DNA of 64,000 bases from Chiloscyllium plagiosum (taxonomy: Eukaryota): the NCBI RefSeq assembly GCF_004010195.1, contig NC_057713.1:29147319-29211318 (forward strand), in the 5' to 3' direction. The notes beneath the pieces are model-generated. The model searched no databases and was not told the DNA's origin. It saw nothing but the letters and a program-made list of their open reading frames with translations. Both the position numbers and the translations under genes were made by a program. This document shows positions 1 through 20,619 of the stretch, piece after piece. Each line of letters starts with the position of its first letter. Positions within the stretch are counted from its first letter, which is position 1.

Positions 1-599
1 GTTTGCCCACCCACATCCCTCTCTGGCTCAGATGCCAGCTGAGGCACACATAAGTCAGGAATAGTGGCTGCACCACATTATGTCTTGGTAGAAAACATAC
101 CTGCAAACTTCCTCTGGTGTCTCTCATGGCCCTAAAAATGAACACTGATAAATTCACTGCAGTGCCTGAAGAGTTGGTTGGAGATTTCGGTAAGCCAAGC
201 CTGATTATTTTTCACTAGTTTTGGGAGCGAGTCAAAAATGTGCACAAATTCTCTGGCCTGTCATTTACTACCCAACATTTTCTTTTAACGTGGCTCGCAC
301 ACAATCCAATGTATATTGGCCACACAGTCACAGTGATCGAGATACAACAGAAAACTGTGAAAAACAGACAGCAAAGCTGGGATAGCAATCATTCCAGCTC
401 ATTAACTGGGAATGTCAAGCCTTAGAAGTTACAGAGCCTAGCTTCGGGAAGACGTTACGGATGGTTTGATGGTGGGGGGGAGGGGAGGAGAGGTATACCA
501 GACTGAGCCATCCTTAAAGGAGTAATAAATCTGCCTATTTTCAGTGAAGCTGGGGTATTATACCCAAAAAGAAACAGAGATCACACCATGTTAAGCAAC

Positions 600-790
600 C
601 TTTGACTATGTCTTATTTCTAACTTATTTTTCAAACACTAAAGTAATGCAACTACTTTTCTTTTTATTCCTCTTTTGTAGCTAAGATTTTGTACCTAAGA
701 TGGTGCCATAAGAGGCAACAGTTTAAAACCTTTCACTGTACTCCTAAGAAGTACACATAACAATGAAAGATATTCTATTCTGTTTTATTC
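600..790 (+). mobile_element. Possible 3' end fragment of a non-LTR retrotransposon
   Basis: T-rich UTR-like tract ending in CAATGAAAG then short TATTC-type repeats (TATTCTATTCTGTTTTATTC); family not determined. Confidence 0.3.
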
Positions 791-1719
791 TTCCTATGTG
801 AATGGGAGAACTTTGAAATATTCTGTTAAGTAGAAACATTTATATCCATTTTTTGCATGACCAATATTGCTTGCACAAGTGGAGCATGAATACTACCACT
901 CGCAGCTCTTCTTACACAGCAGCTTGTAAGGCAATGAAAACACAACCAAAGTGTGTTGTTGAAACAGGCGCCATGTTGATATCCCCGGTCAGACTTCAAC
1001 TGCAGTGCCTTCATCCAGGTCAAATAACTGATGCTCCAAGTCTGTGCTCACCCCACATATCCCAGTCCTGATGAACTGTCATTGAACTGAAACATGGAGT
1101 GGGATTTTAATGGGCATCTGTGTGTGAGGCTGAAAAACAGGTCACATGTCATCAACAAGTCATGCCTCTAGCCTGCTCACCCTCAGGGCATGGTTTTACA
1201 AGAAGTGTTTGTTGCCCAACTGTGGCCTTTAGATAGGCAGTTAATGTTCAGGTAAGGGTTCCTTCCTCAGACAAACAGGGCAGTAGGAGAGAACTGGTCC
1301 CAACTGACCCAGCAGCAGATTTGGTCCTGCAGTTGCCCTTGAGAAATTATTGGTGAGTTGCCTTCTTGAACTGCTGCAGTTCATTTCCTGTAGGGAGACC
1401 CATAATGCCACTGGGGACAGAATTCAAACAGAGTACTTCATACTTGTGTGGCACAACTGTTACTACATGCCATTGAATAGTCCTCACTACTTGTTCATTT
1501 CACTATGTGACCCACACAATCCACAATGATATCAGCAAGACAGTCATCTCTTCACACTACCTTGCATTTCACTCTCCTCCCATGTTTTTCTACTTCGAAG
1601 CAAGTGACCTATTACCACCATTGCCATCATTCCTTCAACGTTTTTCTCAGCTATCATCAACTACATTAAAAAAGAAATTCACGGGAGCCAGGCGTTTAGC
1701 AAGGCTGTAATTTATCTTT

Positions 1720-2130
1720 TTCTGTATTCTTTTATAGTTTGTGTGTTTCAGAAGAACAGTGAGCATTTGTTGCCATCCCTAAATGCCCCTGAACTGATTG
1801 GCTTTCTGGGTCATTTCAGAGAATAGTTAAAAGTCAACTCCATTGCTGTGGGTCTGGAATTATGTGTAGGGCAGATTAATTTAAAGATGGCAGATTACCT
1901 TCCATGAGGGAGATTAGCTTACGGTGTTTAGGACTTTACCATTAGTTTCTGAGTTTTTGTGACAATGGTTTCATGATCATCATTGGTAAGAATGGCTTTT
2001 AATTCCAGATTTACTAATTGAGTTTAAATTCTTTCAGCTGCTATGGTGGGATTTAAACCCTTCTTTCCAGAACATTAATCTGAGCTGCTGAATTAATGTC
2101 CAGTGATATCATCGCTATGTCAGCACCTCT
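1720..2130 (-). mobile_element. tRNA-headed SINE, decayed; shares its 3' tail with the LDIKAAF-type LINE family
   Basis: Minus strand has A-box-like TGACATAGCGATG (~2110-2122) and B-box-like GGTTTAAATCC (~2049-2059). Body resembles copies at 18997-19447 and 58830-59125. Confidence 0.65.
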
Positions 2131-2656
2131 CCTGATTGTCCAGTGATATCATCATTAGGTCAGCACCTCTCCTGATTGTCCAGTGATATCATCACTATGT
2201 CAGCACCTCTCCTGATTGTCCAGTGATATCATCACTAGGTCAGCACTTCTCCTGATAGTCCAGTGATGTCATCACTATGTCAGCACCTCTCCTGATTATC
2301 CAGTGATATCATCACTATGTCAGCTCCTCTCCTGATTGTCCAGTGATATCATTGCTATGTCAACACCTCTCCTGATAGTCCAGTGATGTCATCACTATGT
2401 CAACACCTCTCCTGATTGTCCAGTGATATCATCACTATGTCAGCACCTCTCCTGATTGTCCAGTGATATCATTGCTATGTCAGCTCCTCTCCTGATTGCC
2501 CAGTGATATCATCACTTTGTCAGCTCCTCTCCTGATTGTCCAGTGATATCATCACTTTGTCAGCTCCTCTCCTGATTGCCCAGTGATATCATCGCTATGT
2601 CAACACCTCTCCTGATTGTCCAGTGATATCATCGCTATGCCAGAACCCCTCCTGAT
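2097..2656. repeat. Minisatellite, 14 x 40 bp (TGTCCAGTGATATCATCACTATGTCAGCACCTCTCCTGAT)
   Basis: Head-to-tail units directly visible with exact 40-bp period and few substitutions. Confidence 0.97.
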
Positions 2657-3268
2657 GTCCAGCAGTAGCTGTTGGTGAAGTTTGGAACAGGTGTTTTTCT
2701 TGAACTGCTCAGTTGATTTGATGAAGCAATCCCAAAACATGTGCTCAGGTGTTTATTTCTCAATGAAATCCTTCCCTACTGTCTTCTTTATGACCTGGAG
2801 TTTTGGCCCTTTTACCTTTTACTGAACCGTTGCAGTTCAGTACAACTTATTTTCTTCGCTGTCCAACTGCTGGTGTGGCCTCTTTACCAATATTTCCTTG
2901 ATACTGCACAAGAAAAGTCCCTGCCTTGCAAGTGTGTGGAGTAGGAAAAAGGTTAGGGGAAAACATAGCCCTTCATTTCCTTAACGATCAGCCTCCTCCT
3001 TCTTTCCTTACTTGTGTCAAACCTTAATTTCAATCAGACACAGCTTTGAAACCCACAAGATTCCAATCACTGACAGATTTCTCAAAGAGGAGAAGATATG
3101 AGTTTCCAACTTTAAATTTTGTGAGAAAGGTAGTGTGAAGTAACTCAACAGTGCTGATATCCTGTCACCAAGTCACCCTTTATTCCCACGTGCACAGTAC
3201 ATGGACACCGATCACCTAGCTCAGAGCCAATTCCTAGGGTGAGGAGAATCCCTAAGACTCTTGTTTAT

Positions 3269-3554
3269 TTAAAAAAAAATTTTTTTTATTAACCCCCACA
3301 CTACCGCCTAACTGCGGTAGTGCTTATTTTTTCGCCAGCACCCATGTTGTGTGTGTGCAGGTGTGAAACACAGCGAGAGACACAAGGTGTACGAACCTTT
3401 ATTCATTGTCCACCACCAGGAAGAAAGGAAAACACCCAAGTGGCCAGTGACAAGCAGTGCCCTTCACAAAGGGCAATGCTGTGTGATCAAACAGTGAAGG
3501 GGAGGGCAGGGACTAAATCAAAATAGAGTTGGAAGGGGAGATAATGCACTCCAC
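3269..3554 (-). mobile_element. 5'-truncated non-LTR retrotransposon 3' end, probably Tx1/L1 clade
   Basis: TSD AAGACTCTTGYTTAT (3254-3268, 3555-3569). Minus strand reads VECIISPSNSILI-stop, then a UTR with two hairpins, AATAAA and an A-tail. Clade call is recalled similarity to Tx1 ORF2 ends. Confidence 0.65.
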
Positions 3555-3577
3555 AAGACTCTTGCTTATATATTCTA

Positions 3578-4288
3578 GGAGAAAGTGAGGACTGCAGATG
3601 CTGGAGATCAGAGCTGAAAATGTGTTGCTGGAAAAGCGCAGCAGGTCAGGCAGCATCAAAGGAGCAGGAGAATCGACGTTTCGGGCATGAGCCCTTCTTC
3701 AGGAATGAGGAAAATGTGCCAAGCAGGCTAAGATAAAAGGTANNNNNNNNNNNNNNNNNNNNNNNNNNNNNNNNNNNNNNNNNNNNNNNNNNNNNNNNNN
3801 NNNNNNNNNNNNNNNNNNNNNNNNNNNNNNNNNNNNNNNNNNNNNNNNNNNNNNNNNNNNNNNNNNNNNNNNNNNNNNNNNNNNNNNNNNNNNNNNNNNN
3901 NNNNNNNNNNNNNNNNNNNNNNNNNNNNNNNNNNNNNNNNNNNNNNNNNNNNNNNNNNNNNNNNNNNNNNNNNNNNNNNCCACCTTGTCTCAGTCCCAAC
4001 CCTCGCACTCAGCACCACCTTCCTAACCTGCAATCTTCTTCCTGACCTCTCCGCCCCCACCCCCACTCCGGCCTATCACCCTCACCTTATCACCCTTACC
4101 TTAACCTTCTTCCACCTATCGCATTTCCAACGCCTCTCCCCCAAGTCCCTCCTCCCTATCTTTTATCTTAGCCTGCTTGGCACACTTTCCTCATTCCTGA
4201 AGAAGGGCTTATGCCCGAAACGTTGATTCGCCTGCTCCTTGGATGCTGCCTGACCTGCTGCGCTTTTCCAGCAACACATTTTCAGCTC
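3578..4288. mobile_element. Penelope-like element with inverted arms spanning an assembly gap
   Basis: 3608-3742 is the reverse complement of ~4155-4288. Core CTGAAGAAGGGCTTATGCCCGAAAC at ~4197-4221. Flanked by duplicated CTCTTGYTTATAT. Confidence 0.85.
3743..3979. other. Assembly gap (237 N)
   Basis: Run of N. Confidence 1.
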
Positions 4289-5014
4289 TTGTTTATATCT
4301 GTCAGCCAGGGCTCCCTGATTGGCCCAGGTTAACAGCAGCAATCAGGGAACTCGTATTCAATGAGATCCACATGGCCAATCTTGTTCCAATCACTACATA
4401 GTGATTGTGAATAAATACTTTACACAAAATAGTTAATTTTCTGTCACAAATGCATCATGCTGAAAACCAAATCTCTTCTATTTCACATTTCGGGGAAAGG
4501 AAAACTGCCCTTTAACTCTCATTAACAACCTCAAACACAGTCTTCTCTTTTGATCTTGAATAATATTGACAGCTGTATTGAGGCCTTGCTATCTGATTAG
4601 ATGTTTTATTTTTCTTGGCTCAATAGTTACCTCTGTACCTTATATCTCTGGGCTGAAAGCTCACATACATCTGGTAAACAATCAATCCAGAATGAGTATC
4701 TCAAGATTTCTAACTACTTCTCCAGCAAGCCCATATCAGGTATTTTATCCCAATGTGCAGCTATTTCCTTTAAGGGTAAGTGGACCATTGCTAATCTCCT
4801 AATCCTGTACTGAGTAGATATGCACTGAATGTTCTGTAGCAATTTAATACAGCCTACCCTTACAGATGTTAGAGTTTACACAAATTATCTAACATAAACT
4901 GAAACATACTATGAAATTATGATTATTGTTCATAATAAACTATAGCTATCTGAAATAAAACGTTATTGTCCTTGCATAGCCTGTAGAATTTGCATATACT
5001 ATACAGTACATAAT

Positions 5015-5300
5015 ATAAGACCACAAGATACAAAAACAGATTAGATCATTCAGCTCATTGAGTCTGTTCAATGACATCATGGTTAATCTGATAATCCTCA
5101 ACCCCCACTTTCTTTCCTTTTCCCATAACCTTTTATTCTATGACTGAATAATAATCTCTCTGTCTCAGTCTTGATTATACTTAACATCGCAGCCGCTACA
5201 GCACACAATGGTAAAGAATTCCACCGATTCAATACCTTCTGAGAGACAGAATTTCTTATCTCTATTTTAAATAGGCGATCCCTTACTCTGAGATTATGCT
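5015..5300 (-). mobile_element. CR1-like LINE 3' end, decayed
   Basis: Reverse complement resembles the CR1 3' ends at 27300-27590 and 35200-35500. Confidence 0.65.
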
Positions 5301-6594
5301 GTCTTATTTGAATGAAAATATTGCATACATGATATGTGCTGAGTTATATACTCTCAAATGGAATAATTTAGAAGATACTGTAATGGACCTGAATTTCTCA
5401 GATTCAAGGAAGAAGAATACTGCCCCTGGCCAGAACAACTCTTGTGCTGCTTATGCAGCTTTGAAAACATCCTGCATTCTTGCTAATGGCGAGTGAAGGC
5501 CCAGAGGTAGTGTTTCTATGCTGCAGAAGAGTAGCAGGCTGCCCTGACAGTCAGCCCAAGCCATAAATCAGAAACATTCACAGGGTTAGACTTTAGATTG
5601 CAGTAGAATTAAACATAGATGGGAAGAAACGCAATACTTTGAAGCTGGGGGTGGAGGTAGCGATGACAGATATTGAAATCCAACAAGGAGCTGAATTGTG
5701 GTTTCACACAGATGCGTATTCCATGTTTTATGGTGCCATCAGTAAAATGTCAACCTAACCAGTTGGATTAAAAAAGACAGAACTTCTCTCAAGTAGGAGA
5801 TACAGTGATTGATCGTTCCACAATTATCTGGACACAAGCAGTAATTTGTTTTCATTTGGGATAATAAGAACAAGAGGAGGCCAATTTAGCTTCTTCAGTA
5901 TGTTCCACCATACAATGAGATTGTAGCTAAACGATGACCTAACTTCACCTCAAATCATTGGAAAAACTGACAGGATAATGAAGAGAATTGTGTGTGAGTG
6001 ATTAATTGTGGGGAATAAAAGGTAGAATTAGATATGGCACCCATAACTGGGGGAGTAGTAGAAGAACATGAATAATTTAGAAAACTGTTCTTTCTTATTC
6101 ACTCATGGGACATGAACATTAAGGCCGGGCCAGTATTTACTACCTGTCTCTAGTTGCCCTTGAGAAGGGGTGATAAGTTGCCTTCTTGAACCACTGCAGT
6201 CCACTTGATGTAGGTAAACCCATTTCTCTAACTCATAAGCCTAACAATCTTAGATTTAAAATGAACAATTATCATGAAAAGAGTTTAAAATTTCTGTCAC
6301 CCTGTGCATGTAGAGAGTTTCCTAACTTCACTCCTCAACTGCCTGCTTCCAATTTTCAGGTTACATCCCCCAACCTAGACTCTCTTACTAGCAGAAATTG
6401 ATTCTCTATATCTACTGTTCTCCTCACACTTTGAGGAGATTCCTCAAAGGAAATTGAAATTCCAATCAAAGTTTCTAAATCTGAGGGACTATAATCCTAT
6501 TGTGTGTATTCCTCCTGCAATTTAAATTCTGGAGTCTGGATAGCATTCTGGCTAATCTACATTGCACTTACTTCATGACTGATCTATCCTGCTT

Positions 6595-6705
6595 AACTCT
6601 GCAGTAGCAGTAGTCCTACCATTGGACCAGAGACCTGGCTTCATGAACCACCTTCCCTGGAGGTATCTGATAACATGCCTGAACAGGTTGATTAAAGATA
6701 TTCAT
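6595..6705 (+). mobile_element. Short (~110 bp) tRNA-like SINE; related copies at ~16826-16935 (+), ~42280-42365 (-), ~46479-46590 (+)
   Basis: Shared pattern GTGGTAGTGTCCCTAC...GGTTCAAGTC...TAATAACAT...GATTA among the four loci. Confidence 0.5.
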
Positions 6706-6831
6706 CCTGACTAAGGTGTGGAGACTAGGACTGGAGCTGAAAGTCTGTTGCTGGAAAAGCGCAGCAGATCAGGCAGCATCCAAGGAGCAGGAGAATTGAT
6801 GTTTCGGGCATGAGCCCTTCTTCAGGAATGA

Positions 6832-6897
6832 GGTGGTTCAGTGGTAGAATTCTTGCCTGCCACGCGGGAGGCCCGGGTTCGATTCCCAGCCAATGCA
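6832..6897 (+). tRNA. tRNA-Gly(GCC) copy 1, missing the first 5 nt (pseudogene)
   Basis: GGTGGTTCAGTGGTAGAATTCTTGCCTGCCACGCGGGAGGCCCGGGTTCGATTCCCAGCCAATGCA; two CpG-type changes from the conserved vertebrate tRNA-Gly-GCC. Confidence 0.9.
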
Positions 6898-6920
6898 TTG
6901 TAGCATCCTTTATTTCAGGT

Positions 6921-6991
6921 GCATTGGTGGTTCAGTGGTAGAATTCTTGCCTGCCACACGGGAGGCCCGGGTTCGATTCCCAGTCAATGCA
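6921..6991 (+). tRNA. tRNA-Gly(GCC) copy 2, full length 71 nt, probably pseudogene
   Basis: GCATTGG...TCAATGCA, anticodon GCC at 6953-6955, intact A and B boxes, four substitutions in stems, no encoded CCA. Confidence 0.92.
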
Positions 6992-7889
6992 TTGTAGCAT
7001 CCTTTATTTCAGCCTCAATCCTGAAGAAGGGCTCATGCTCGAAACATCGATTCACCTGCTCCTTAGATGCTGCCTGACATGCTGCGCTTTTCCAGCAACA
7101 CATTTTCAGCTCTGATCTCCAGCATCTGCAGTCCTCACTTTCTCCGAGAAGGCTAGGATTGGACCCAGTTCTCCAGGTGTAATCAAACCAGAGTTTTGTA
7201 TTAATGATTAGCCAGAGCAATTGGATGAACACCCCTGCTTCTCTCTAAAATAGTGTCATAAGATATTTTTTACTTGAAATCTGGAGGAAATAGTTTATTC
7301 CAATATTCAGACCCAGCGATGGAAGGACTTTCACTGTTGCTACCTTTTTAAGTTTTATTTTGCTCAAAAACGTAAGTTCTATATGCTGGAAAATGTTAAA
7401 ATATATTAAGACGATTAAAACTATTCAAATAAAATAGCCCTCTGTTGAAAGAAAGCTGAACAATACAACACTAAAACAGCAACAATTTGCAATTATACTG
7501 TGGTGTTAACACAGAAAAGGTTTCCCTTCACTCCTTTGAAGAGATGTAAGAAAAACTTGGACAGTGAACTAATGAAGAGATATTATCAGGAAACAATCAA
7601 CTTCTGGCAATGTTCTAAAGATAAATAGGAATACGGGGAGGCTAAGTCCTTAGGAAGGGTGACCATAGCATTTGATGGTTCACAACTAGCAAAAATAGGC
7701 TGAATGGATCTGAGTGATACACATGGGCTCAACTTAGAAGAACAGAAAGTTTACTAGGGAGCTTTGTAATGTTGGAGTCCTTGGCTCCATTGCATTATAA
7801 TTCATCTCAGGAGGGTTCCTCTGGATCAAAACTATGCATCTGCTCATTCAGTTTGCTTTTTTTTAATTGTAGAGTTCAGGTGCCTCAAC

Positions 7890-9140
7890 CGTGTTATCAA
7901 GCAGCATCTGCTCAGCAATAGCCTGCTCAGTGATGCCCAGTTTGGCTTTCGCCAAGGCCACTCAACTCCTGACCTCATTACAGCCTTGGTTCAAAAACGG
8001 ACAAAAGAGCTGAATTCTAAAGGCGAGGTGAGAGTCACAGTCCTTGACATCAAGGCTGCATTCAACCAAGTGTGGCATCAAGGACCCCTCACAAAACTGG
8101 AAACAATGGATTTTGGGGCAAACTCTCTGCTGGTTGGAGTCATACCTGGCACTCAGAAAGATGGTCATGGTTGTTGAAGATCAATTATCTCAGGTGCAGG
8201 AGATCTCTTAAGGAGTACCCTCATGGTAATATCGTAGGCCCAACCATCTCAGTTGCTTCATCAATGACTTTCCCTCCATTATAACGTCAGAAGTGAGGGA
8301 TGTTTGCTGATGATTGCACAATGTTTAGCACAATTCACGAATCCTCAGATACAGAAGCAGCCCATATTCAAATGCAATAAGATCTGGACAATATCCAGGC
8401 TTGAGCTGACAAGTGGTATTTAGTAATATTCGTGCCACACAAATGCCAGGCAATGACCATCTTTAATAGGAGATAATGTAACCATCTTCCCTTGATATTC
8501 AATAGTGTTATCATTACCGAAACCCCACTATCCACATCCTTGAGGTTATGATTGACCAAAAACTTAGCTAGGCTTGCCACATAAACTGTGGCTACAAAAG
8601 TGTGTCACAGGCTGGAAATACTGTGGAGAGTAACTCATCTTCCGACTCCCCAAAGCCTGTTCATAATCGACAAGGTACATGCCAGAAATATGATGTAATA
8701 CTCCCCACCTGCCTGGATGGGTACAGCTCCAACAACTCTCAAGAAGCTTGACACCATCCAGGACAAAGCAGCCCACTTGATTGGCACCGCACTCACAAGC
8801 GTTCACTCCCTCCACCATCACTGTTCAGTAGCAGCAGTGTGTACTATCTATTAGATGCACTGCAGAAAGATCCTTCAACAGCACTTTCCAAACTCACAAT
8901 CATTTTGATCCAGAAGGACAAGGGCAGTAGATACATGGGAACATCACCACCTGCAAGTTCCCCTTCAAGCGACTGACCATCCCGACTTGGAAATATATCA
9001 CCGCTCCTTCACTGTCGCTGGGTCAAAATCCTGGAATTCCATTCCATTGTGGGTCAACCTACAGCAGGTGGACTGCAGCAGTTCAAGCAGCTCAAATGCA
9101 TAGTCAGCAGCGTCCATATCCCACGAGTGAATAAAAAAGA
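7890..9140 (+). mobile_element. CR1-group LINE (LDIKAAF-type), RT domain to 3' tail, frameshifted
   Basis: GEVRVTVLDIKAAFNQVWHQG, GVPHG, MFADD and KKLDTIQDKA motifs; tail CCCACGAGTGAATAAAAAA. Confidence 0.9.
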
Positions 9141-10214
9141 AACGTCTTGAAAACTCTGTTTAACATCCACTGTTCAGGAGTTCATGTTGAGTCCAAAGTA
9201 ACATTTGATGCAGTGCAGACTTCTGTTTTTTTTTTAAATTATCTGTCTGAGAAAATTCAGAATTCAAAACACAAGGACCAGTACTAAAAACTATAAAGCA
9301 GTGCATGGAATGCTCATGGGAAAGGCAGCAAATTTAAAAATATAATGCAATGTTTACATTTTCTCTTCAGCATTCTTCATTTCTCGCGGTTATTAATGCG
9401 TCACTGCAGTGTGGTTCCATAGGAGCCAGCTTCTGTCTTAAATTTCCTACTTATTTTCTATCTGAGGCAGTGCATACAGCAGGGATATGCACGAGGAAGG
9501 TAAACCACATCCTTTGTCTATATATGAGCACCTTGCAGTAAGGATCATAATGTGGAGAAAAGAAGCAAGAGCTACAAAGTAGAAATTTTTTTTCTCTGCT
9601 ACCACAATCAGCATGTTTGTTATTTTCACTCACCAAATCTTTACTTGGCAACTATCTGGAGAAAAATATTTGGAATAAAGTCGGTTCCTTCAGTTAAGAA
9701 AATAAAGAGACAGGTCATTGCAAAAAAAACCTAAGCAAGGATGCAAACTTTATTAACAAAATGTCTTAAATGTGAAAACACATCCAACTGTCATACTTGA
9801 AAAATATCAGGCATGCACATATATCTGTCATGCTCTCAGCTACCGTGCAAGCTGCATGTGGTATTCTGGTTTGAGTAGTTTGCTGCCACCAGTCCCCCTT
9901 TCAATGGAAAGGGTCAACACTGATGATTCGAACAGAGGAGGCACTAATCTTACATGACAAGGTAGTTCATTGCCTAAAAGCAACAAGTAAAATTGAGGTC
10001 AACTTGCAAAGCATAATTGCGAAGGATTTTTGGGAGCTGTAAATCTGCTCCCTTCAGGTACAAATGCAGATCTAACCATCTCCACCCTGCGTGACTTCAT
10101 CAGACTGGATGGAACTCAATGTTAATATGAACATTAACTCTTTCAGAAACATTACTTCAGATGAAAGCTCTCTGTTCAAAACCTGAACAAAATTCTGCAG
10201 AGTATTATTTTGTA

Positions 10215-10380
10215 AAGTTTTTAAGAAGGACTTGGATATAGTTCTTAGGGTTGAACAGATTAAGGTTAGGGGGTGAATGTGGGAACAGAGTATTGCGTTG
10301 GATGATCAGCCATGATCATGTTGAATGATGCAGCAGCCCGAAAAGGCCGAATGGCATACTCCTGTGACTATGTTTAATGT
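10215..10380 (+). mobile_element. CR1-like LINE 3' tail
   Basis: GATCAGCCATGATC...GGCCGAATGG...ACTCCTG...TATGT pattern. Confidence 0.7.
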
Positions 10381-10404
10381 GTTTTGTTTTTAGCTTAAAA
10401 GTAC

Positions 10405-10705
10405 TTTGTGCTTCACAGCCCCAGGGGCAGGGTTCGATTCTGGCCTCGGGCGACTGTTTGTGTGGAGTCTGCACATTCTCCCTGTGTCTGTGTGTTTTTT
10501 CTCTGGGTGTTCCGGTTCCCTCCCACATTCCAAAAAGATATGCTGGCCTGGTAAATTGGCCATGATAAATTGCCCATAGTGTTAGGTGCATTAGTCAGGG
10601 GTAAATGTAGGGAAATGAGTCTGGGTGGGTCACTCTTCAGAGGGTCAGTGTGGACTTGTTGGGCCGAAGGGTCTGTTTCCACATTGATGGGAATCCAACC
10701 TATTT
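10405..10705 (+). mobile_element. HE1/V-SINE-like element, 5' truncated
   Basis: B-box GGTTCGATTC, core TGTGTGGAGTCTGCACATTCTCCC, CR1-like tail GGGCCGAAGGGTCTGTTTCC. Confidence 0.85.
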
Positions 10706-12389
10706 AAGTAACAGTTAAATTGGAAAAGAAACGTATTCACAGATTATCAGAAATACTGGTCTGCAACCAAAGTTAATTTCCACATTAGCTATTGCCACTG
10801 GGATTTCTTCCTAGATCAGTTTTTAAGCAAAAGGATTCATTAGCTGTGGCTATTGCTGCCTGGCCAATTGTTATTTCTCATCCCTAACTGTCTGGACAAT
10901 AGTTAAGAGCCAATTTTTGTTGGTCTGGAGTAACATATCAACCAGACCAGCTAAAGATGGCAGATGTCCTTCTCTGAAGGTCATTAATGAACGAGATAGG
11001 TTTTTAAGATAATCAACAATGGTTACAGCTTCACAACTTGTCTGTTTTGTGAACATTATCCACCCAGGAGGTCTGATTGCTACTTGAAAAGTTTGTAGCT
11101 CCCATATGTGAGTTATGTTGGAACTCAGCATTGAGTTCAAACGGCCCTGCTCTGCATCTTCCTCATGTGCGGGTCAAGCCTTGATCACATTCCTTACCAG
11201 CAAAAATGGTATTTGTCACAAACTCTGGTGAACTTTAGATTTGAGGTCCAATCACCATCTTGGATTCTCTGTGAAATCTCCATGTCTCTGATAATTCTAA
11301 TATTGAATTCACCACCCTCTGCCTCAGAGGGGAGTGTTACCACAGAGTCATGATTGTAACTGCCTTTGAAGAAAGTGGGTGAAAATCATTGCGACAAAGT
11401 GACTGAAAATATCACAATTAAACCTGAATTCTGACCTAGCCATTTGGCCTAATTAGACTTGGACCAACAATGAGGAAGGTAATGTAGGTACAATGTAAAT
11501 GTAAGATGAACAGTTTGCTCAGTAAAGCAGATATTTTAGTGTTCACTGTGATTGATGTAGTTTGGGGGTTTTGCCAAATTTCTGAGCATCAGGAAAGTAG
11601 GAAGTGTGAAATCTCTCAACACCCACCTTCCACTCAAACACATCAGGTCAAGGTTTGGGTTCTGCCAGCTAAGAAAACCCATGAGGGCTTTGCATCTCAT
11701 GATAAATTAGTTCCAGATGGAAAATATGAAACACTCCTTTTTGAATTCTGATAATCACTTGCTGCTCAGCTGTCCAGCTGTAGAAATTGCTCTTGGGTAA
11801 ACTCTTAGCTGAGATCGAGTTGTCCTGCAGTAAGGCAATTTTATGTTCGACAGATACTTGTTTGGAAAGGAATCAGTTGAGTCTGTTCATAAACTCATTG
11901 CATCACAAAGCCTTACAGTTTCTGAACAGAAGAAAGTTTCACCTCATGAGTTTGAATTGGTTTCAAATTGAGGTCCATAAGTGACAGGACAGTTTAAAAC
12001 GAAAGCATTCATATACAATTAAAAGTTGGATCCAGAATGTTGCCCAAGTGTAACTTTCATCAAATTTGATGGATGGTTTCTCTCCACGAATTTTGGGTGT
12101 GATTGTCCCAAACCTCCCTCATAAACTACCCAGCAGGTTCCTATGGCTCCTCTCTCAGTGACTCTCCCATGTGCTCTAGCTGGACATCCTTGCCATTACT
12201 TTGACATCATGACACAGGCACCATCTTTCAAAGTGATCAAGCACTGGCAGTCCACAGCTGCCCTGCCCCGATTGTGACATTTGCCACAGACACGACAGAA
12301 AAGAAGAAATTGGCACTTCCTTTACGGATAGAGAGCATGAAGTCCTGGTAGAAGGCATGCTGCAGGGGAGAGTCTGGTTTCACAGAGCA

Positions 12390-12980
12390 GGACTATATAG
12401 CTCCTCAAAAATTAAAGGCATTAAGTTTGGATGAATTGAAAGGGGTAGCCAGTCACTAAGAGTTAAGGTTCCAGCTGAAAGCCAGCTAAAAACAGAAATT
12501 CCAACTTGAGCAGTAAAATATCTAAAGTTGGAAAGGATAGTGATGCAGATAAACTAAATCTGGAGCATCACAGATTAAAATTCCAACAGAATAGGAAGGA
12601 AAGAGAAGTCCAGGAATTGCAAAAGAAGGCAAGGTATAGCAAAGGGAGAAGAAAGTAAAGAGAAAATGCAAATTGAAACAGCTCAAACTGAGAAGGGAGA
12701 ATTCCATTGAAACGACCTCTGCTGCGGGAGCCACAGACATCAGTGCTGAAATACTCATGCTTAGCAATTTAATCCCCACTTTTCATAAAGGAGATGCCTC
12801 TTTCATCTCTTTTGAGCAGTTAACATTGTAGCAAAGGTTGCCAGTCTAACAATGAGCATGGTTACTGAAGAGCACACTGACAGGGAAAGTTCACAATATT
12901 TGAGAAGAGTGTAACAGAATATCAGGCAGCAAAAAGAGCTATTTTAAGTGCATACCACTACGTGCTAGTGATTTATACAT
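12390..12980 (+). mobile_element. Gypsy-type gag relic, heavily decayed
   Basis: Broken peptides LIPTFHKGDA..FISFEQ, STLTGKVH and AKRAILSAYHYV after an E/K/R-rich stretch; recalled similarity to fish Gypsy/Gmr1 gag. Confidence 0.55.
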
Positions 12981-13284
12981 ATTTTGCATATCAATTACTC
13001 TTTTACCATTAGCACTCCCTTTGTCTTTTGCCACTCACTTGTCCTCCAATCTGGCAACAAATCTTCTGTCCTGAAGACGTGACAGTGAATACAAAATATT
13101 AACTTGCTTTCTCTCTCTACAGATGCTATAGACCTGCTGGGTTTCTCCAACATCTTACCTTTTCAATATAGATTTTCCGCATCTGCAGTATTTTGCTTTT
13201 GTGAAAGAAACCTGCCTTTCCACCTAAATCGTTTAAGAATGTTCCATTTTGCACATCACGTGAAGGAAACTGTGGGGGATAAAT

Positions 13285-13670
13285 ACAGCATCTTCCAACG
13301 CTGTGAGGTCAACCACCTAAAAGACAAAGGCAGCAGATACCTAGGAAAACCAGCAGCTGCTAGTTTCCTTTCATGCCACACATCACCCTGACTTACAGTC
13401 GTAGAGTCATAGAGGTTTACAGCATGGGAACAGGCCCTTTGGTCCATCTTGCCCATGCCACCCAGTTTCCACAATTAAACTGATCTCATTTGCCTGCATT
13501 GGTCCATATCCTTCCATTCCTATCCCATCACTGGAAAGATATCATGGTTCCTTAATGGTCAAAATCCTGGAGCTTTATTCCTAATAGCATTGTGCATGTC
13601 CTAACAGCTCAAGGACTGCAATAGTTCAAGAAGGCAGCTCACCACCATCTTCTCAAGGGCAATGAGTGCT
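13285..13670 (+). mobile_element. LDIKAAF-type LINE 3' tail interrupted by a minus-strand CR1 tail (~13400-13530)
   Basis: Matches 8880-9100; insert starts with GTCGTAGAGTCATAGAG repeats. Confidence 0.7.
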
Positions 13671-13899
13671 CTGCCCTTCCTGCCTTCTCTCAATAATCAG
13701 TTAAACAAAAGAAAGAGTTATCAATTCTGCCATAAGATGACACTAACTCATCAATAAGCATCTCACTAAAGTTCAGTTCTGCTACAAATACCAGTCTTCA
13801 GCCACTAATCTGGACTTGGACATTAACATTGAATCATAAGGTGACATAATAAGATAATGTGAATGCATTCATTTGATAAGCCAATGATTTTACTTTGAT

Positions 13900-15010
13900 T
13901 TTATTTGTGCAACATTGCCAAAGTCAATATTTATTGCCTGCCCTTAATTGCCCCTATCCTGATGAACTACATTCCTGATGAAGGGCTTTTGCCCGAAACA
14001 TTGATTTTCCTGCTCCTAGGATGCTGCCTGACCTGCTGTGCTTTTACAGCAACACTCTAGTCTAGACTCTGATCTCCAGCATCTGCAGTCCTCACTTTCG
14101 CCTACATTCTTGAACTGTCGAAGTCCCACATCTGGTGTTCGAAGGGAGGGAGTTCCAGGATTTTGATCAGTGAAGGAACAGTGATACAGTTCCTAGACAA
14201 GATGGTGTGTGGGTTAAAGGGGGATTTTCCCATGTGTTTGCTGCTCTTGCCCTTCCCAGGGGAAGAAGTCACAGATTTGGAAGGCGCAGTTGCAGCAGGC
14301 TTAGCAAGTTTCTGCAGTGAATCTTGCAGAGGGCACACACTGTTGCCATCATGTATTAGTGGTAGGGGAAGTGAGTGTTTATGTTGGGAGTGCCAGTCAT
14401 GAGGGCTGCTTTGACTTGGATGGTATCAAGCTTCTTAAATCTTGTTGGAGTTCTACCCATCCAGGCAAGTGGGGAATTTTCCATCACACTTCTGACTTGT
14501 GCCTTGTAAATAGAATCATTGAATTTTACAGTACAGGAGAGGGCCATTCGGCTTATCATGTCTGCACAGGTTCCCAAAAGAGATATCCACCACTCTCCTA
14601 GGCAGCACATTCCACATCCTGACAACTCAATAAAGACGTTCTTTCTCATCTCATTGCTAGCTCTCTTGCTGACAGTCCTGCAATTTTGACTCCGGGTTAT
14701 TGACATACCAACTAGTGGAAACAGAATATCCTTGTTCATTATCAAGTTTGCTCATAATTTTGTTCATAATCAATAAGGTCACTCCCTAATCTTCGCTGCT
14801 CCAAGAAGAATAAGCTCAATTTTTCTAGTATTTCCTTGTACCTAAAATCCCTCATTCTGGTAAATCTCCTTTTCACTGTCTCCAGAGCTTTAATAACCTT
14901 CCTTAAACAAGGTAGCCAGAACTGAAGACAATACTCCAATAGTGAACACACCTGGGGAATCAGGAATGGAGTTACCTGCCACAGGATTTCCAGGTTCTGA
15001 CTTGTTTTTG
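13900..15010 (-). mobile_element. LDIKAAF-type LINE 3' part with nested PLE arm (13971-14101, +) and nested CR1 (~14510-14945, -)
   Basis: YKAQVRSVMENSPLAWM and KKLDTIQVKAA on minus; LLEYCLQFWLP...LEQRRLGSDLI in the nested CR1; CTACATTC duplicated around the PLE arm. Confidence 0.85.
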
Positions 15011-15294
15011 TAATGTTGATCAAAGTGAGAAACACTAGAAATACATCTCACATCTCATTGGAGTTTCTGTCATTACACAGGATTCATTTGAAGATTGTTC
15101 AGAACAGTACATGTACCTTCGGTGTTTTATCCGCATTTTCCATATTGGATGAAGGTTGTTAACTTGTTTCACGTTGAAGAGATACAGCATCCAGCTGCTC
15201 GAATTGTGAACTGTGTTCGAAAGGAAGATGTTCTAAAATCATATTCAAAATTATAATGTACTTACAACTGCATATTCTTTTTAAACTTTGGCTT

Positions 15295-16752
15295 TGATCT
15301 TATGTCTTCACTGTCTACAGGAGTAGTGCCAGAAGATTGGAGGATAGAAAATATTGTCCCCTTGTTCAAGAAGGGGAGTAGAGTCAAACCTGGTAATTAT
15401 AGACCAGTGAGCTTTACTTTGGTTGTGGGTAGAGTGTTGGAAAGGATTATAAGAGATAGGATTTCTAATCATCTAGAAAGGAATAATTTGATTGGGAATA
15501 GTCAACACGGTTTTGTGGGGGGTGGGGGGGGGGGGGAGTAAGTCGTGCCTCACAAACCTTATTGAGTTCTTTGAGAAGGTGATTAAACAGGTGGATGAGG
15601 ATAGAGTGGTTGATGTGGATTTCGATGGAGCAATGATAGGGTTCCCATTCGTAGGCTATTCCACAAAATACGGAAGCATGGGATTGAGGGTGATTTAACG
15701 GTTTGGATCAGACATTGGCTAGCTGAAAGAAGACAGAGTGGTGGTTGATGGGAAATGTTCATCCTGGAGTTCAGTAACTAGTGGTATACCGCAAGGATCT
15801 ATTTTGGGGCCATTGCTATTTGTCATTTTTATAAATGACCTGCATGAGGGCATAGAAGGATGGGTTGGTGGATTTGTGGATGACAGAAGGATTGGTGGAG
15901 TTGTGGATCGTGCTGAAGGATGTTGCAAGTTACAGAGGGACATGGAAATGCTGCAGAGCTGGGCTGAGAGGTGGGAAATGGAGATTAATGCGGAAAAGTG
16001 TGAGGTAATTCACTTTGGAAGGAAAACATGAATACAGAGTACTGGGCTAAAGGTAAGATTCTTGGTAGTGTAGATGAGCAGAGAGATCTCTGTGTCGTTG
16101 TGCATAAATCCCTGAAAGTTGCCACCCAGGTTGATAGGGTTGTTAAGAAGACGTACAGTGTGTCAGGTTTTATTGGTAGAGGGATTAAGTTTCCGAGCCA
16201 TGAGGTCATATTGCAGTTGTACAGAACTCTGGTGTGGCCGCACTTGGAGTATTGCATAAAGTTCTGGTCACCGCATTCTCGGAAGGATGTGGAAGCCTTG
16301 GAAAGGGTTCAGAGGAGATTTACCAAAATGTTGCCTGATATGAAAAGAAGGTCTTATGAGGAAAGGCTGAGGAACTTGAGTCTGTTTTCTTTAGAGAGAA
16401 GAAGGTTGAGAAGCATACAAGATGATCAGAGAATTAGATAGGGTAGACAGTAAGAGCCTTTTTCCTTGGATGGCAATGGCTAGCAAGAGGGGATATAGCT
16501 TTAAATTGAGGGGTGATAGATATAGGACAGATGTCAGAGGTAGGTTCTTTACTCAGAGAGTATTAAGGGCTTGGAATGTCCTGCCTGCAACAGTAGTAGA
16601 CTGTTTAAGGGCATTTAAAGTGTCATTGGATAAACTTATGGATGATAATGGAATAGTGTAGGTTAGATGGGCTTCAGATTGGTTTCACAGGTCGGCGCAA
16701 CATCCAGGGTCTAAGGGCCTGTACTGCGCTTTAATGTTCTATGTTCTATATG
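15295..16752 (+). mobile_element. CR1/HER1-like LINE, 5' truncated, RT plus 3' UTR, frameshifted
   Basis: PEDWR..NIVPLFKKG..NYRPVSFT, SCLTNLIEFFE, SGIPQGSILGP, LYRTLVWPHLEYC, FFTQRV; tail TTCTATG repeats. Confidence 0.95.
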
Positions 16753-17171
16753 TTTGATATTTCATATTGTAATAGGCAGTATAGTGGAAGTTATTAGGAA
16801 CTCAGAAGTGTATTGTCACTGTAAAGGTTCTTGTAGCATTGTGGTAGTGTCCCTACATCTAAACCTGGAGGCCTGAGAACAAATCCAATCTGCTCCAGTG
16901 TGTCATAATGTGTATTATCAAATTGTTTAAAAATAGCTTACTGCTATTGGAGATAAGCCCCTCAATGAAGATTGATATTTGGATGCAATAGGGCTACCCT
17001 CCTACCACTGAGCAAACGAGTCTTGCAGTGTCCACTTAAATATGCCGAGCTTGGGAATGACAATTATCTCTTCCTTTTCCATTGTGGCCAGTAGGATGCT
17101 TTCGTGGGCTCGCCAGTGGGCACTCAGTAGTACGGGTTTTGCGCCAGAAAGGTGCACAGCAGAATTTACAG

Positions 17172-17301
17172 GTGAAAGTGAGGACAGCGGATGCTGGAGA
17201 TCAGAGTTGAAAAGTGTGGTGCTGGAAAAGCACAGCAGGTCAGGCAGCATCCAAGGAGCAGGAGAGTTGACGTTTCGGGCATAAGCCCTTCATCAGGAAT
17301 G
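17172..17301 (-). mobile_element. Solo PLE arm with hammerhead-like core
   Basis: Homologous to 3581-3708; ACAGGTG on both sides. Confidence 0.85.
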
Positions 17302-18075
17302 TCACAGGTGCTTCTATTTTAAAACCAGCCTGTGAGATGCTGTTTCAAGTTGTGGCCATTGGGTGGCATCATGGCACAAGTTTCCAAAGGCTCTCTCAAT
17401 TCCATTGCCAGCTTGTGAGCAAAATAAATTGCACTCAAAAAAATCACTGGTGGGTAAAGCCCTATAGAATATGTCAGTCACTATTAAAAGACTTTCCACT
17501 GAAATCTGGAGCTGAATTCCAAGCTGATCCATCAGCAGCAAATACCCAGTTTCTAAATGGTAAGCTAGCTGCACACCATTACAACTGTATCCTTCACTCT
17601 TGCATTCACTTACATAACTGGGAAATCTGCTTCCTGTTCACCACTAGTGAGCCTTGCTTAGTCTCCTCTGTATTCAGCTTCTTGCTGATGTCAATAAGTT
17701 TGTCAGAGCCCCCAGTGTGGTGGAGTAAAAGCCTGTGGGGCATGTGACTGTTGCAAAATGAATGAACCATGGTAACTTCCAATGATACCCACAGACAAAA
17801 ACATTTCTATTACTAGATATGAGCTGAAAATTCAGTGAGTGGAATCTCTTCCCATTCTTAAGTATACCTGGGTAACCCAAGGATGCCAGGTTTGCTACAT
17901 CATTTTAGCCAATCATATCGTGTAGCTGTGTGGATCCGGCCATTGCAACACTAGAAGCGCTTTGTGTCACTACATCAACAGTAAAACCTATCCCAAAAAT
18001 TCTTTATCTCTGCCCACACCAGGAAGAAAAATCAGTGGAATCCTTAGATGGCTGTGGGATGCATCTCTGCAAATA

Positions 18076-18347
18076 AGATTAGATTAGATTACTTACAGTG
18101 TGGAAACAGGCCCTTCGGCCCAACAAGTCCACACCGACCCTCCGAAGAGCAACCCACCCAGACCCATTCCCCAACATTTATCCCTTCACCTAACACTATG
18201 GGAAATTTAGTATGGCCAATTCACCTAACCTGCACATCTTTGGTCTGTGGGAGGAAACAGGAGCACCTGGAGGAAACCACGCAGAATTGAACCTGGGTCC
18301 CTGGTGCTGTGAGGCAGCAGTGCTAACCATTGTGCCACCGTGCCACC
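18076..18347 (-). mobile_element. HE1/V-SINE-like element with internal deletion
   Basis: Minus: GGCACGGTGGCACAATGGTTAGCACTGCTGCC head, GGTTCAATTC B-box, (CTAAT)n tail. Confidence 0.9.
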
Positions 18348-18796
18348 CAAAGATAGTGACCCTGCTGTATCTAACTTTGGTAGTTTGCAAAGCCAAGTAG
18401 TTCTCTTTTCTCTCCAGACCACACTGTCCTTTCACAAAGCTCTGTCCTTTTGTGATATTCATTGATTTGTAGGGCAACCTGTAACCTGATATATTGTTGC
18501 CATGGCAAAATGAAACCTATAGCCTTACCTTCAAATAAAATTGCTGATAAGCAATTTTAACCAAATCTCTTCTATCTTAAAACCAAATGGTCAGGTTAGA
18601 GCAAAACAGTACTTTTCTAGGACTCAACCCATTGTGAACTCAAAGACTGCTATAATTGTCTTTAACCATGAATGCCTTATCCATTGCCTCACTAATACAA
18701 TATGGCCAATCCTTTGAACTTTAATCCACAACAGACATGTTACCAACCAGACTTCAGAACTGGTCACATGATCCCTTCCATTTTACTTTAAAGACA

Positions 18797-18886
18797 CAGT
18801 TGAAAAGTGTGACGCTGGAAAAGCACAGCTGATCAGGCAGAAGCAGGAGAGTCGATGTTTCTGGCATAAGCCCTTCATCAGAAATG
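18797..18886 (-). mobile_element. Solo PLE arm, decayed
   Basis: GCTGGAAAAGCACAG...AAGCCCTTCATCAG homology. Confidence 0.75.
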
Positions 18887-18996
18887 TTTATTGAATTTTT
18901 ATTTTTATTGAATTTAAAGACAATGTTAAAATATAATAATCTGATATAATTTATAACAGTTTGTCAATAAATTAATGAAGATAGATTTTTGAAAAT

Positions 18997-19447
18997 TCAT
19001 TCATGGGATTGTGGGCACCACTAGCCACACAGCATTTATTACCATCCCTAATTTCCCAAGGCAAACTAAGAGTCAGCATCATTGCTGTAGGCCTGGAGTC
19101 ACAAGTAGACAAAGAAGGCAACTTCTTTTCCAAAAGACATTAGTAAACCAGGTGGGCTTTTTGGGGCAATTAGCAATGGTTTCATGGTCATCATTGGACG
19201 CTTAATGTGAGATTTTTATTAATTCAAATTCCACCATTTGTCATGGCAAGGTTCAAACCCAGCTTCCCAGAACATTACCTGGGCCTCTGGAAAAATAGAG
19301 TCAAGGTTAGAGTGGAGCTAGAAAAGCACAGCAGGCCAGGCAGCATCCGAGGAGCAGGAAAATCACAATTTCGGGCAAAAGCCCTTCATCAGGAATGAGG
19401 CCTCTGGAAGAAGAGCCCAGTAATAATACCATGAGACCATCAGCTCC
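18997..19447 (-). mobile_element. tRNA-headed SINE with nested PLE arm (~19297-19398)
   Basis: Same family as 1720-2130; GGCCTCTGGAA duplicated on both sides of the PLE arm. Confidence 0.75.
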
Positions 19448-20619
19448 CTTACAATTTATGTGAATATTCCACTTGTCATGTGATACTGTAAAAACCTGTC
19501 TAGCAATTCCCATCAACCAACAACGTGAGTATTTTTTGCTCCCTTGTCGTGATTCTCTAAATTTTAAGCTATTTGTGTCTCTACAATGGAACATAGAATA
19601 TTAGGGTCCATGATTACGATCTATCTATCATTTTGGGCATATTCCTGGCAGGAATCCACCAGACAGAAAACAAAGAAAGACAACTGGATTTCAGTCAATT
19701 TCTCACAGGGTGCACTTGGTCCAGTCTCTATTCTCTCTGCAGTGTGCCCAGTGCCCAATCTCTGTGCTGTCTGTTCCCCAAATCCAATCTGATCTTCCAG
19801 TCTGCCCTGGGTCTGGCCCTGGTCTGCCTCTGCCCTAGACTCAGCCCTGCCCCTACGATTTCTGTGTCTGAGCCCAGTTCTCTGTGCTCTGAGTCTAATC
19901 TGGCTTTGTGGCAGAAGGATAAAATATTGAAAAGAAATATAGCATACAGAGGGAAACAAAGTGACACCTGCCATAGATTCTCTGCTGCTGTGTATTAGTG
20001 AAGCATTTTCTGTCTTCTACTCTTCGGCCAAGAGTGGAAACTTCATTGGAAAAAGAAATGTAATAAATGCTCTCTTGCATTTCTTTTCCAAGATACAATG
20101 CACAAATATGCCAAAATTCTACATTTTTATAGTAGCTGGAACTCAAAGGTGGTCTTGAGAATAAAATGAAAAATAACAGGACAGGCAATTGGAAAAATAA
20201 TTCACACAAATCACCTATGTTTTCTCAGGAAAGTAAAAGTGAAGCAACTAATTAAAATGATAGATCAGTGAGTTGAAACACTTGCCAAAGAATCTCATGC
20301 GTTGCCTCCCCTCACTGCTTCCTTACACAGAAATCTTGACTCATCTGCTACTCACATTAACTAGAGTACTTGATGTTCAGAGCCTCTGCCTGGATCTCCC
20401 ATAAGAAATTCCTGTCAAAATTCCAATAGTATCTTTGAATAGTTACACTGGACTATTTCCATCAACTGCTCCTTTACACCATGATTACCATTATTCTGAT
20501 TTGCTTTTAATTAATTGGTAGCAAAGCCTGACCAAAGGTAACCTTTCAAATGACTAGGGCTGGTCAGGCAATTTGAGTGAGACACTTGGTCTTTCTCCAA
20601 AGATGCTGCCTGAACTGTA

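Follow-up and report, generated by a model that had tools for sequence, protein, structure and literature searches.

A tandem tRNA-Gly repeat with precursor-like ends between inverted Penelope-like arms in the genome of Chiloscyllium plagiosum

The window that we analyzed is a stretch of 64,000 nucleotides of Chiloscyllium plagiosum (contig NC_057713.1, positions 29,147,319 to 29,211,318 of the forward strand), and positions without another label refer to it. TRF detected a tandem repeat at 6832-7012 with a period of 94, 1.9 copies and 97% matches, which fills the gap between two inverted repeat arms at 6734-6833 (-) and 7013-7145 (+). The 94-bp unit is composed of a 3-nt leader, a 71-nt tRNA-Gly(GCC) and a 20-nt trailer. 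Two tRNA matches were found by Rfam, a complete one at 6921-6991 (47.3 bits) and one at 6832-6891 covering positions 6-65 of the model (35.5 bits), and ARAGORN called a tRNA-Gly(gcc) at the repeat. Copy 1 of the tRNA (6832-6897, +) begins at tRNA base 6, runs to base 71 and shares a 2-nt GG overlap with the left arm. It is followed by a 20-nt 3' trailer (6898-6917, +) with a weak terminator-like run (T3-A-T3), which matches that of the dispersed copy L001 at all 20 nt. The 5' leader of copy 2, GGT (6918-6920, +), corresponds to the end of the native leader ...CGTAGGT in L022, L036 and L141, and the A preceding 6918 can be assigned to the trailer or to the leader (1-nt overlap). Copy 2 is complete with 71 nt (6921-6991, +), and sequence comparison showed that its trailer (6992-7011, +) has the same letters as that of copy 1. 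CCA is absent 3' of both copies. The array ends with a single G (7012, +), one base past the trailer and next to the right arm, where the arm subfamily has T and the family trailer goes on with A; this base could be a non-templated base, the first base of a leader or the trace of a duplication junction. These results bear out the exact 94-bp period, the 1.9 turns and the missing CCA given in a preliminary description made from the letters alone. The predicted fold of the unit was not distinctive (z -0.89).

Compared with the native gene L021 of the same genome, both tRNA copies carry C28T and G62A, confirming that two changes are common to them as had been described, and copy 2 carries G38A and C64T in addition. 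Both shared changes are CpG transitions, as are 3 of the 4 changed sites overall. Between the two copies, 2 of 87 positions are different; copy 2 is a pseudogene.

The arms that enclose the repeat are 91% complementary to each other (9 of 100 positions differ). The short left arm (6734-6833, -) is a Penelope-like 3' end without tail, 5'-truncated at CCTCA just ahead of the hammerhead-like core. The long right arm (7013-7145, +), assigned through homologous arms in sibling loci, is a Penelope-like 3' end with a 33-nt tail and a CTGAAGA...GAAAC motif, which we read by eye and take to be hammerhead core-like; Rfam gave no hammerhead match at E<=5 in window positions 1-20000. The right arm has 133 nt and the left arm 100 nt, so that the tail is one-sided, and in many sibling cassettes one arm likewise ends at position 133 while its partner is shorter. 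The arms fold as a long DNA stem with the tRNA insert as loop. Direct repeats of 18 bp lie at 6718-6735 (+), the last 2 bases being inside the left arm, and at 7146-7163 (+), with 14 of 18 positions identical; contigs of organism B have C at 7159, the same base as the left copy, which raises the identity to 15 of 18. As judged from these letters, the repeats are a probable, decayed target-site duplication, and duplications of 12-20 bp are frequent at sibling cassettes.

At 12 of 12 loci (L101-L112), all retrieved with a protein query from one arm-bearing locus, a reading frame bearing a GIY-YIG motif and a C-X4-CxxC motif precedes the arm on the same strand. Pfam matched GIY-YIG (PF01541) at E 9.4e-4 and 0.014, both below the curated cut-off, and gave no match for two shorter fragments. 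A full-length element with a telomerase-like RT domain was not among the sequences recovered; the long frames retrieved were N gaps. Searches with exact patterns only showed that inverted pairs of this arm are abundant, with 557 pairs at spacers of 0-30 nt and 170 at spacers of 65-95 nt; among the 50 junctions listed for the 0-30-nt pairs, joins at or adjoining CCTCA recur. The window itself holds a second inverted pair of the same Penelope-like family at 3573-4289, with longer arms and a central N gap, and a 40-bp tandem repeat at 2097-2662 (14.2 copies, 91% matches).

We also compared the sequences at which arms meet in sibling cassettes. Directly re-copied sequence was present at 7 of 34 Penelope junction loci, 4 of which have one common 28-bp unit that may be inherited from the source copy. 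These four (L068, L069, L072 and L077, junctions near 1500) are young cassettes with different sites and join points and several perfect 28-bp copies, and their unit includes the start of the hammerhead-like core. Foreign inserts of 72-83 nt copied from the element's own flanking DNA were found at 2 of the 34 loci, a count that leaves out two further spacer-flank matches consisting of element sequence. In L074 and L093, the arm-arm spacers near 1510-1640 are 72-83-nt copies (98.6-100%) of same-strand DNA 340-380 bp away. Two pattern searches (7 and 19 matches) gave no further case of a full tRNA enclosed by Penelope arms, and pattern searches for foreign inserts behind the CCTCA-cut arm gave mostly element sequence. 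At L123:1480-1545 (-), the 5' half of a tRNA-Lys stands beside a single Penelope-like arm, between 10-bp direct repeats.

Contigs of organism B from two studies align from 7123 across the right flank and differ from the window at 23-24 of 477 bases. They stop within the arm, and so do the contigs of organism A. The organism B contigs have only 23 arm bases on the element side, the bridging rule being 31 letters, and among the matches listed no piece of contig spans the trailer-arm junction. From these alignments, the right arm is likely present in organism B. Because its contigs reach the arm at about 5% flank divergence, the insertion is probably older than a split of that depth. The many N gaps in the assembly would leave room for an artefact in which two haplotypes of one unit were written in tandem, but the middle junction has the leader and the 5' tRNA bases that are missing from the left junction, so that no simple overlap produces the repeat, and the cassette is free of gaps; we regard an artefact as extremely improbable. 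With high confidence, we take the locus to be a real, old, non-functional Penelope-like cassette into which a pre-tRNA-Gly was captured. We predict no function for it today: it is a dead single fossil copy, and its value is that of a mechanistic footprint.

The ends of the 94-bp unit were compared with those of other tRNA-Gly copies. A pattern search for the trailer gave 8 matches, namely the 2 window copies, 5 other tRNA-Gly copies and 1 chance match. Four of the 5 other copies join a SINE-like repeat, presumably HE1-like, 0-5 nt past the trailer CCTTT, and in the fifth, L001, 89 further nt align to the downstream flank of the native gene family. L001:1400-1590 (-) is a tRNA-Gly retrocopy with about 90 nt of terminator read-through and a 17-20-bp direct repeat. 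Pre-tRNA-Gly with its trailer is joined to the 5' end of the SINE-like repeat in L004, L005, L007, L008, L018, L024, L042, L142, L148 and L149, and these junctions record precursor 3' ends. Of 12 SINE- or LINE-fused copies tested, only L001 showed a clear target duplication, and none was found for the LINE-joined copies L139 and L143 described below. At the 5' side, native genes with the leader ...CGTAGGT have a trailer of the same type, and the dispersed copies L005, L018, L024, L017 and L020 have GGT at the same place ahead of the tRNA, L005 combining TAGGT with the same trailer. The leader of the dimer unit is as long as that of other dispersed copies, and native flanks are absent beyond the transcript ends of the unit, which likely spans the predicted start site to just past the weak terminator. 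Since the unit ends match the precursor ends of the dispersed copies and no local DNA donor or native 94-bp array was found, comparison of the sequences supports a pre-tRNA, not a mature tRNA, as the template. A precursor without CCA had been proposed before, and the family leader and trailer together with L005 agree with it.

A search for the parent locus with this trailer, and for AGGT upstream of it, had been proposed. The family leader ...CGTAGGT does hold AGGT, but two patterns, a DNA search and 120 kb around the C37 cluster yielded no intact parent with precisely this trailer; in the DNA search for tRNA-Gly, 40 of 104 candidates were scored and 41 matches examined, 39 of them outside the window. 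The C37 cluster (G000:C37:27607282-27630930) comprises five tRNA-Gly(GCC) genes, one decayed, with common upstream and downstream flanks, and near-identical or decayed relatives of these genes lie on several unplaced contigs. The five native-type genes are spaced 1.9-8.9 kb apart. Exact patterns for tandem tRNA-Gly, which may miss decayed arrays, found this locus alone in 3.56 Gb (1 match; the other pattern gave 2, the second being a SINE-like tandem), which speaks against a chance arrangement. The array check proposed earlier therefore revealed no native 94-bp array, as far as exact patterns and the 120 kb around the C37 cluster reach. We found no donor for the tRNA unit in the window and the 10 kb upstream of it, and no donor flank was carried along.

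These searches bear on the possibility that the insertion copied chromosomal DNA, either a compact array of native tRNA genes or a retrocopy that was older and already decayed. Penelope junctions do take up DNA, as L074 and L093 show, the shared CpG changes could be put down to decay of the DNA donor, and the gap-rich assembly may lack this donor; against this, the exact patterns returned no 94-bp array and the C37 genes lie kilobases apart, the nearby sequence holds no donor, and both unit ends are transcript ends without donor flank. Capture of DNA is in our judgement very improbable. The likelihoods that we attach to this and the other origins of the second copy are judgements, not computed values.

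We somewhat favor the reading in which the second tRNA copy arose by a second end-to-end jump on linear pre-tRNA. Both target strands would be cut, and each would prime a copy of the element 3' end, giving two arms. On the right-hand copy, the enzyme would reach the end of its template immediately 5' of the ribozyme-like core and continue on a pre-tRNA-Gly from that molecule's 3' end; in this reading, the extra G at 7012 is a non-templated base added at this first jump. At the 3-nt leader, the enzyme would jump once more, with a 1-nt overlap, to the 3' end of a pre-tRNA, which could be the molecule just copied or another one, and the second copy would halt at tRNA base 6 and be joined to the left arm over the 2-nt overlap. 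The shared CpG changes would have come later, by parallel decay or conversion between the tandem units, or would have been present already in a decayed template gene. The entry of copying 1 base from the end of the trailer is what a linear 3' end would predict. A pairing of the trailer with the element 5' end was considered as a docking aid and rejected, because 266 of 1000 shuffles pair equally well.

Serial chains of small-RNA sequences elsewhere in the genome, together with the re-copied sequence at 7 of 34 Penelope junctions, favor linear jumping. Among the matches listed, 2 of the 39 other tRNA-Gly matches belong to two-tRNA chains. One, L139:474-620 (-) (G000:C10:51487073-51487220), is composed of a tRNA-Glu(CTC)-like sequence, 12 nt, tRNA-Gly, its trailer and a LINE RT fragment (Pfam RVT_1, E 3.2e-8). 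Its Glu copy has a D-arm deletion, is without Rfam match and was seen by ARAGORN at relaxed score only, and L041, the parent-like gene of its Gly copy, is without Glu upstream. The other, L143:462-628 (+) (G000:C101136:42961-43127), is composed of tRNA-Gly, 22 nt and tRNA-Thr(CGT), then trailer-like and LINE-like sequence; a native Gly-Thr two-gene template is a possible source. Both chains fit end-to-end jumping between linear RNAs. A third chain, at L064:5250-5900 (G000:C4:88105250-88105900), reads Gly fragment, U1 snRNA, Gly, deleted U1, Gly and SINE-like sequence; an intact tRNA-Gly gene follows about 1.1 kb downstream, and the chain arose either by serial jumps or by the duplication, long ago, of a unit made up of U1 and tRNA. 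All three attach to LINE or SINE pieces and not to Penelope arms, which weakens them as support, as does the failure of the pattern searches to find a second full tRNA between such arms. No parent gene with exactly this trailer was found either, and the available text of PMC11167929 does not show template jumping by the enzyme of a Penelope-like element (PLE).

The shared changes speak against a simple double jump. Of the 5 sibling copies that have this trailer, none carries T28 and 1 carries A62, so that both changes were absent from the usual template; in a set of 17 other decayed copies, T28 is present in 4 and A62 in 7. The chance of parallel decay to both shared CpG changes is about 0.10. 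The units also differ less than the arms do, at 2 of 87 against 9 of 100 positions (Fisher p 0.065; non-CpG only, p 0.075). From the shared CpG changes and the lower difference between the units, the sequence comparison suggests (p about 0.07) that the units have a later common ancestor than the arms. The likeness of the units could come from conversion between the two halves of an original dimer, from a template allele that had decayed before it was copied twice, or from later duplication of a single captured unit, and the shared CpG changes point to DNA-level events or to a decayed template allele.

Under the duplication reading, the insertion took up a single pre-tRNA, and a later event at the DNA level produced the second copy. 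Originally, the left arm ...GAGG would be joined over AGG to the leader, followed by one tRNA, the trailer and the right arm; after two CpG decays, slippage at the loop of the arm hairpin would double the insert via AG at both ends, and a GGTG repeat 8 nt apart would drop the first bases of copy 1. This accounts for the two shared CpG transitions, which would otherwise call for the parallel decay just described, and for the low difference between the units; G7012 matches the middle junction, the required AG and GGTG overlaps are present in the sequence, and the arms can form the long DNA stem that would present the insert as a loop. The 94-bp event, however, must stop precisely where the insert does, using a 2-nt overlap, and be combined with an 8-nt loss, and plain duplication of either copy fails because copy 1 is without bases found in copy 2. 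The statistics behind it are suggestive, with p about 0.07, and conversion in an original dimer explains them equally. We consider later duplication or conversion in DNA a serious rival, with duplication less likely than a second jump on linear pre-tRNA, which stays our preferred origin.

The preliminary description had put forward a circular template. In that reading, an end-joined pre-tRNA, with its trailer ligated to its leader, was copied 1.9 times by rolling-circle reverse transcription. The middle junction does join exactly the trailer end to the leader start, G7012 can be read as the first base beyond such a junction, and one molecule would give the same variants in both copies. Entry of the enzyme within one base of the junction speaks against a circle, since random entry within two bases of the junction of a 94-nt circle has an estimated probability of about 5/94 (about 5%), an estimate applied to a single case. 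The chains of L139, L143 and L064 are impossible from one circle, and exact patterns in 3.56 Gb found no second homodimer. A primary transcript carries a 5' triphosphate and a 3' OH, which are poor ends for RtcB-type ligation. Circular tRNA intermediates do exist for permuted algal genes (PMC3978253), but as described there they lose leader and trailer before ligation, whereas the junction here would join the two. The PLE-related hammerhead retrozymes, for which rolling-circle movement has been proposed (10.64898/2026.07.22.740005), lend the circle some plausibility, and concatemers can also come from linear RNA, as reported for DRT2 (PMC12039810). Because of the entry near the junction, the heterologous chains and the CpG type of the shared changes, a circular template is not our leading reading and we hold it to be improbable. 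It is accordingly doubtful that the insert is the fossil of a covalently closed vertebrate pre-tRNA copied 1.9 times by a Penelope-like reverse transcriptase. If it were, defective pre-tRNAs (here with a broken T-stem pair) would be circularized in the germ line and serve as rolling-circle templates, an RNA species without description for ordinary animal tRNA genes in the literature searched.

The in vivo mechanism of Penelope-like enzymes is only partly known. The locus suggests that they can use a host small-RNA precursor as template where two arms meet, and that they may copy such a precursor repeatedly, as their telomerase relatives repeat a template. Together with the Glu-Gly, Gly-Thr and Gly-U1 chains, it shows that the ends of tRNA precursors and series of template jumps are preserved in this genome. 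The literature that we searched, outside subscription journals and supplements, reports no concatemer of tRNA or pre-tRNA in a Penelope insertion and no trailer-leader circle.

Several known systems resemble parts of this insertion. In vitro, the non-LTR R2 reverse transcriptase can cross 10 or more linear templates (10.1101/2021.04.30.442027), and DRT2 makes concatemeric cDNA from linear RNA (PMC12039810); as in these systems, end-to-end copying would give head-to-tail repeats without a circular template. DRT2 copying is programmed and functional, whereas the shark dimer appears to be an accidental two-copy fossil, with jumping proposed for its enzyme by analogy. Tripartite chimeric retrocopies of Magnaporthe and mammals, from which double jumps in vivo have been deduced (PMC2104539), and tRNA/LINE-1 chimeras, in which the human tRNA parts are mostly antisense halves (PMC13174262), likewise fuse different RNAs in one insertion with direct repeats. 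Those chimeras are LINE-made, while the shark tRNA retains its whole length, its leader and its trailer, occurs twice and lies between Penelope-like arms. Known tRNA circles are introns or, in the permuted case, intermediates without leader and trailer (PMC3978253). A closed pre-tRNA would resemble the algal circles and the non-LTR retrozymes (10.64898/2026.07.22.740005) in that tandem cDNA would arise by rolling-circle copying, but each retrozyme unit bears a ribozyme and the 94-bp unit is a tRNA with flanks and no ribozyme.

The closest likeness in structure is to endonuclease-positive PLE insertions. PLE insertions are described with an inverted 5'-truncated copy and a 30-40-bp tail on one side (Craig et al. 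2021, PMC8557442), and a purified lizard PLE enzyme cuts and extends both target strands in vitro (Frangieh et al. 2024, PMC11167929). The lizard enzyme starts within its RNA, which accounts for the tail (PMC11167929). The shark locus shares with them (PMC8557442, PMC11167929) the head-to-head arms, the 33-nt tail on one arm and the probable target duplication, as well as the hammerhead-like motif and, in sibling copies, the frame with GIY-YIG-like and C-X4-CxxC motifs upstream of the arm; it differs in that it is without a coding part and its junction holds a host small-RNA precursor, twice. In Adineta vaga, terminal repeats of Penelope have been described with captured host sequences between them (Arkhipova et al. 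2013, PMC3846280), so that, as in the shark, unrelated sequence lies between terminal repeats with a target duplication around them. The captured sequences reported there are intron-containing genes and unnamed non-coding pieces (PMC3846280), whereas the shark cassette holds a repeated Pol III precursor bounded at its transcript ends.
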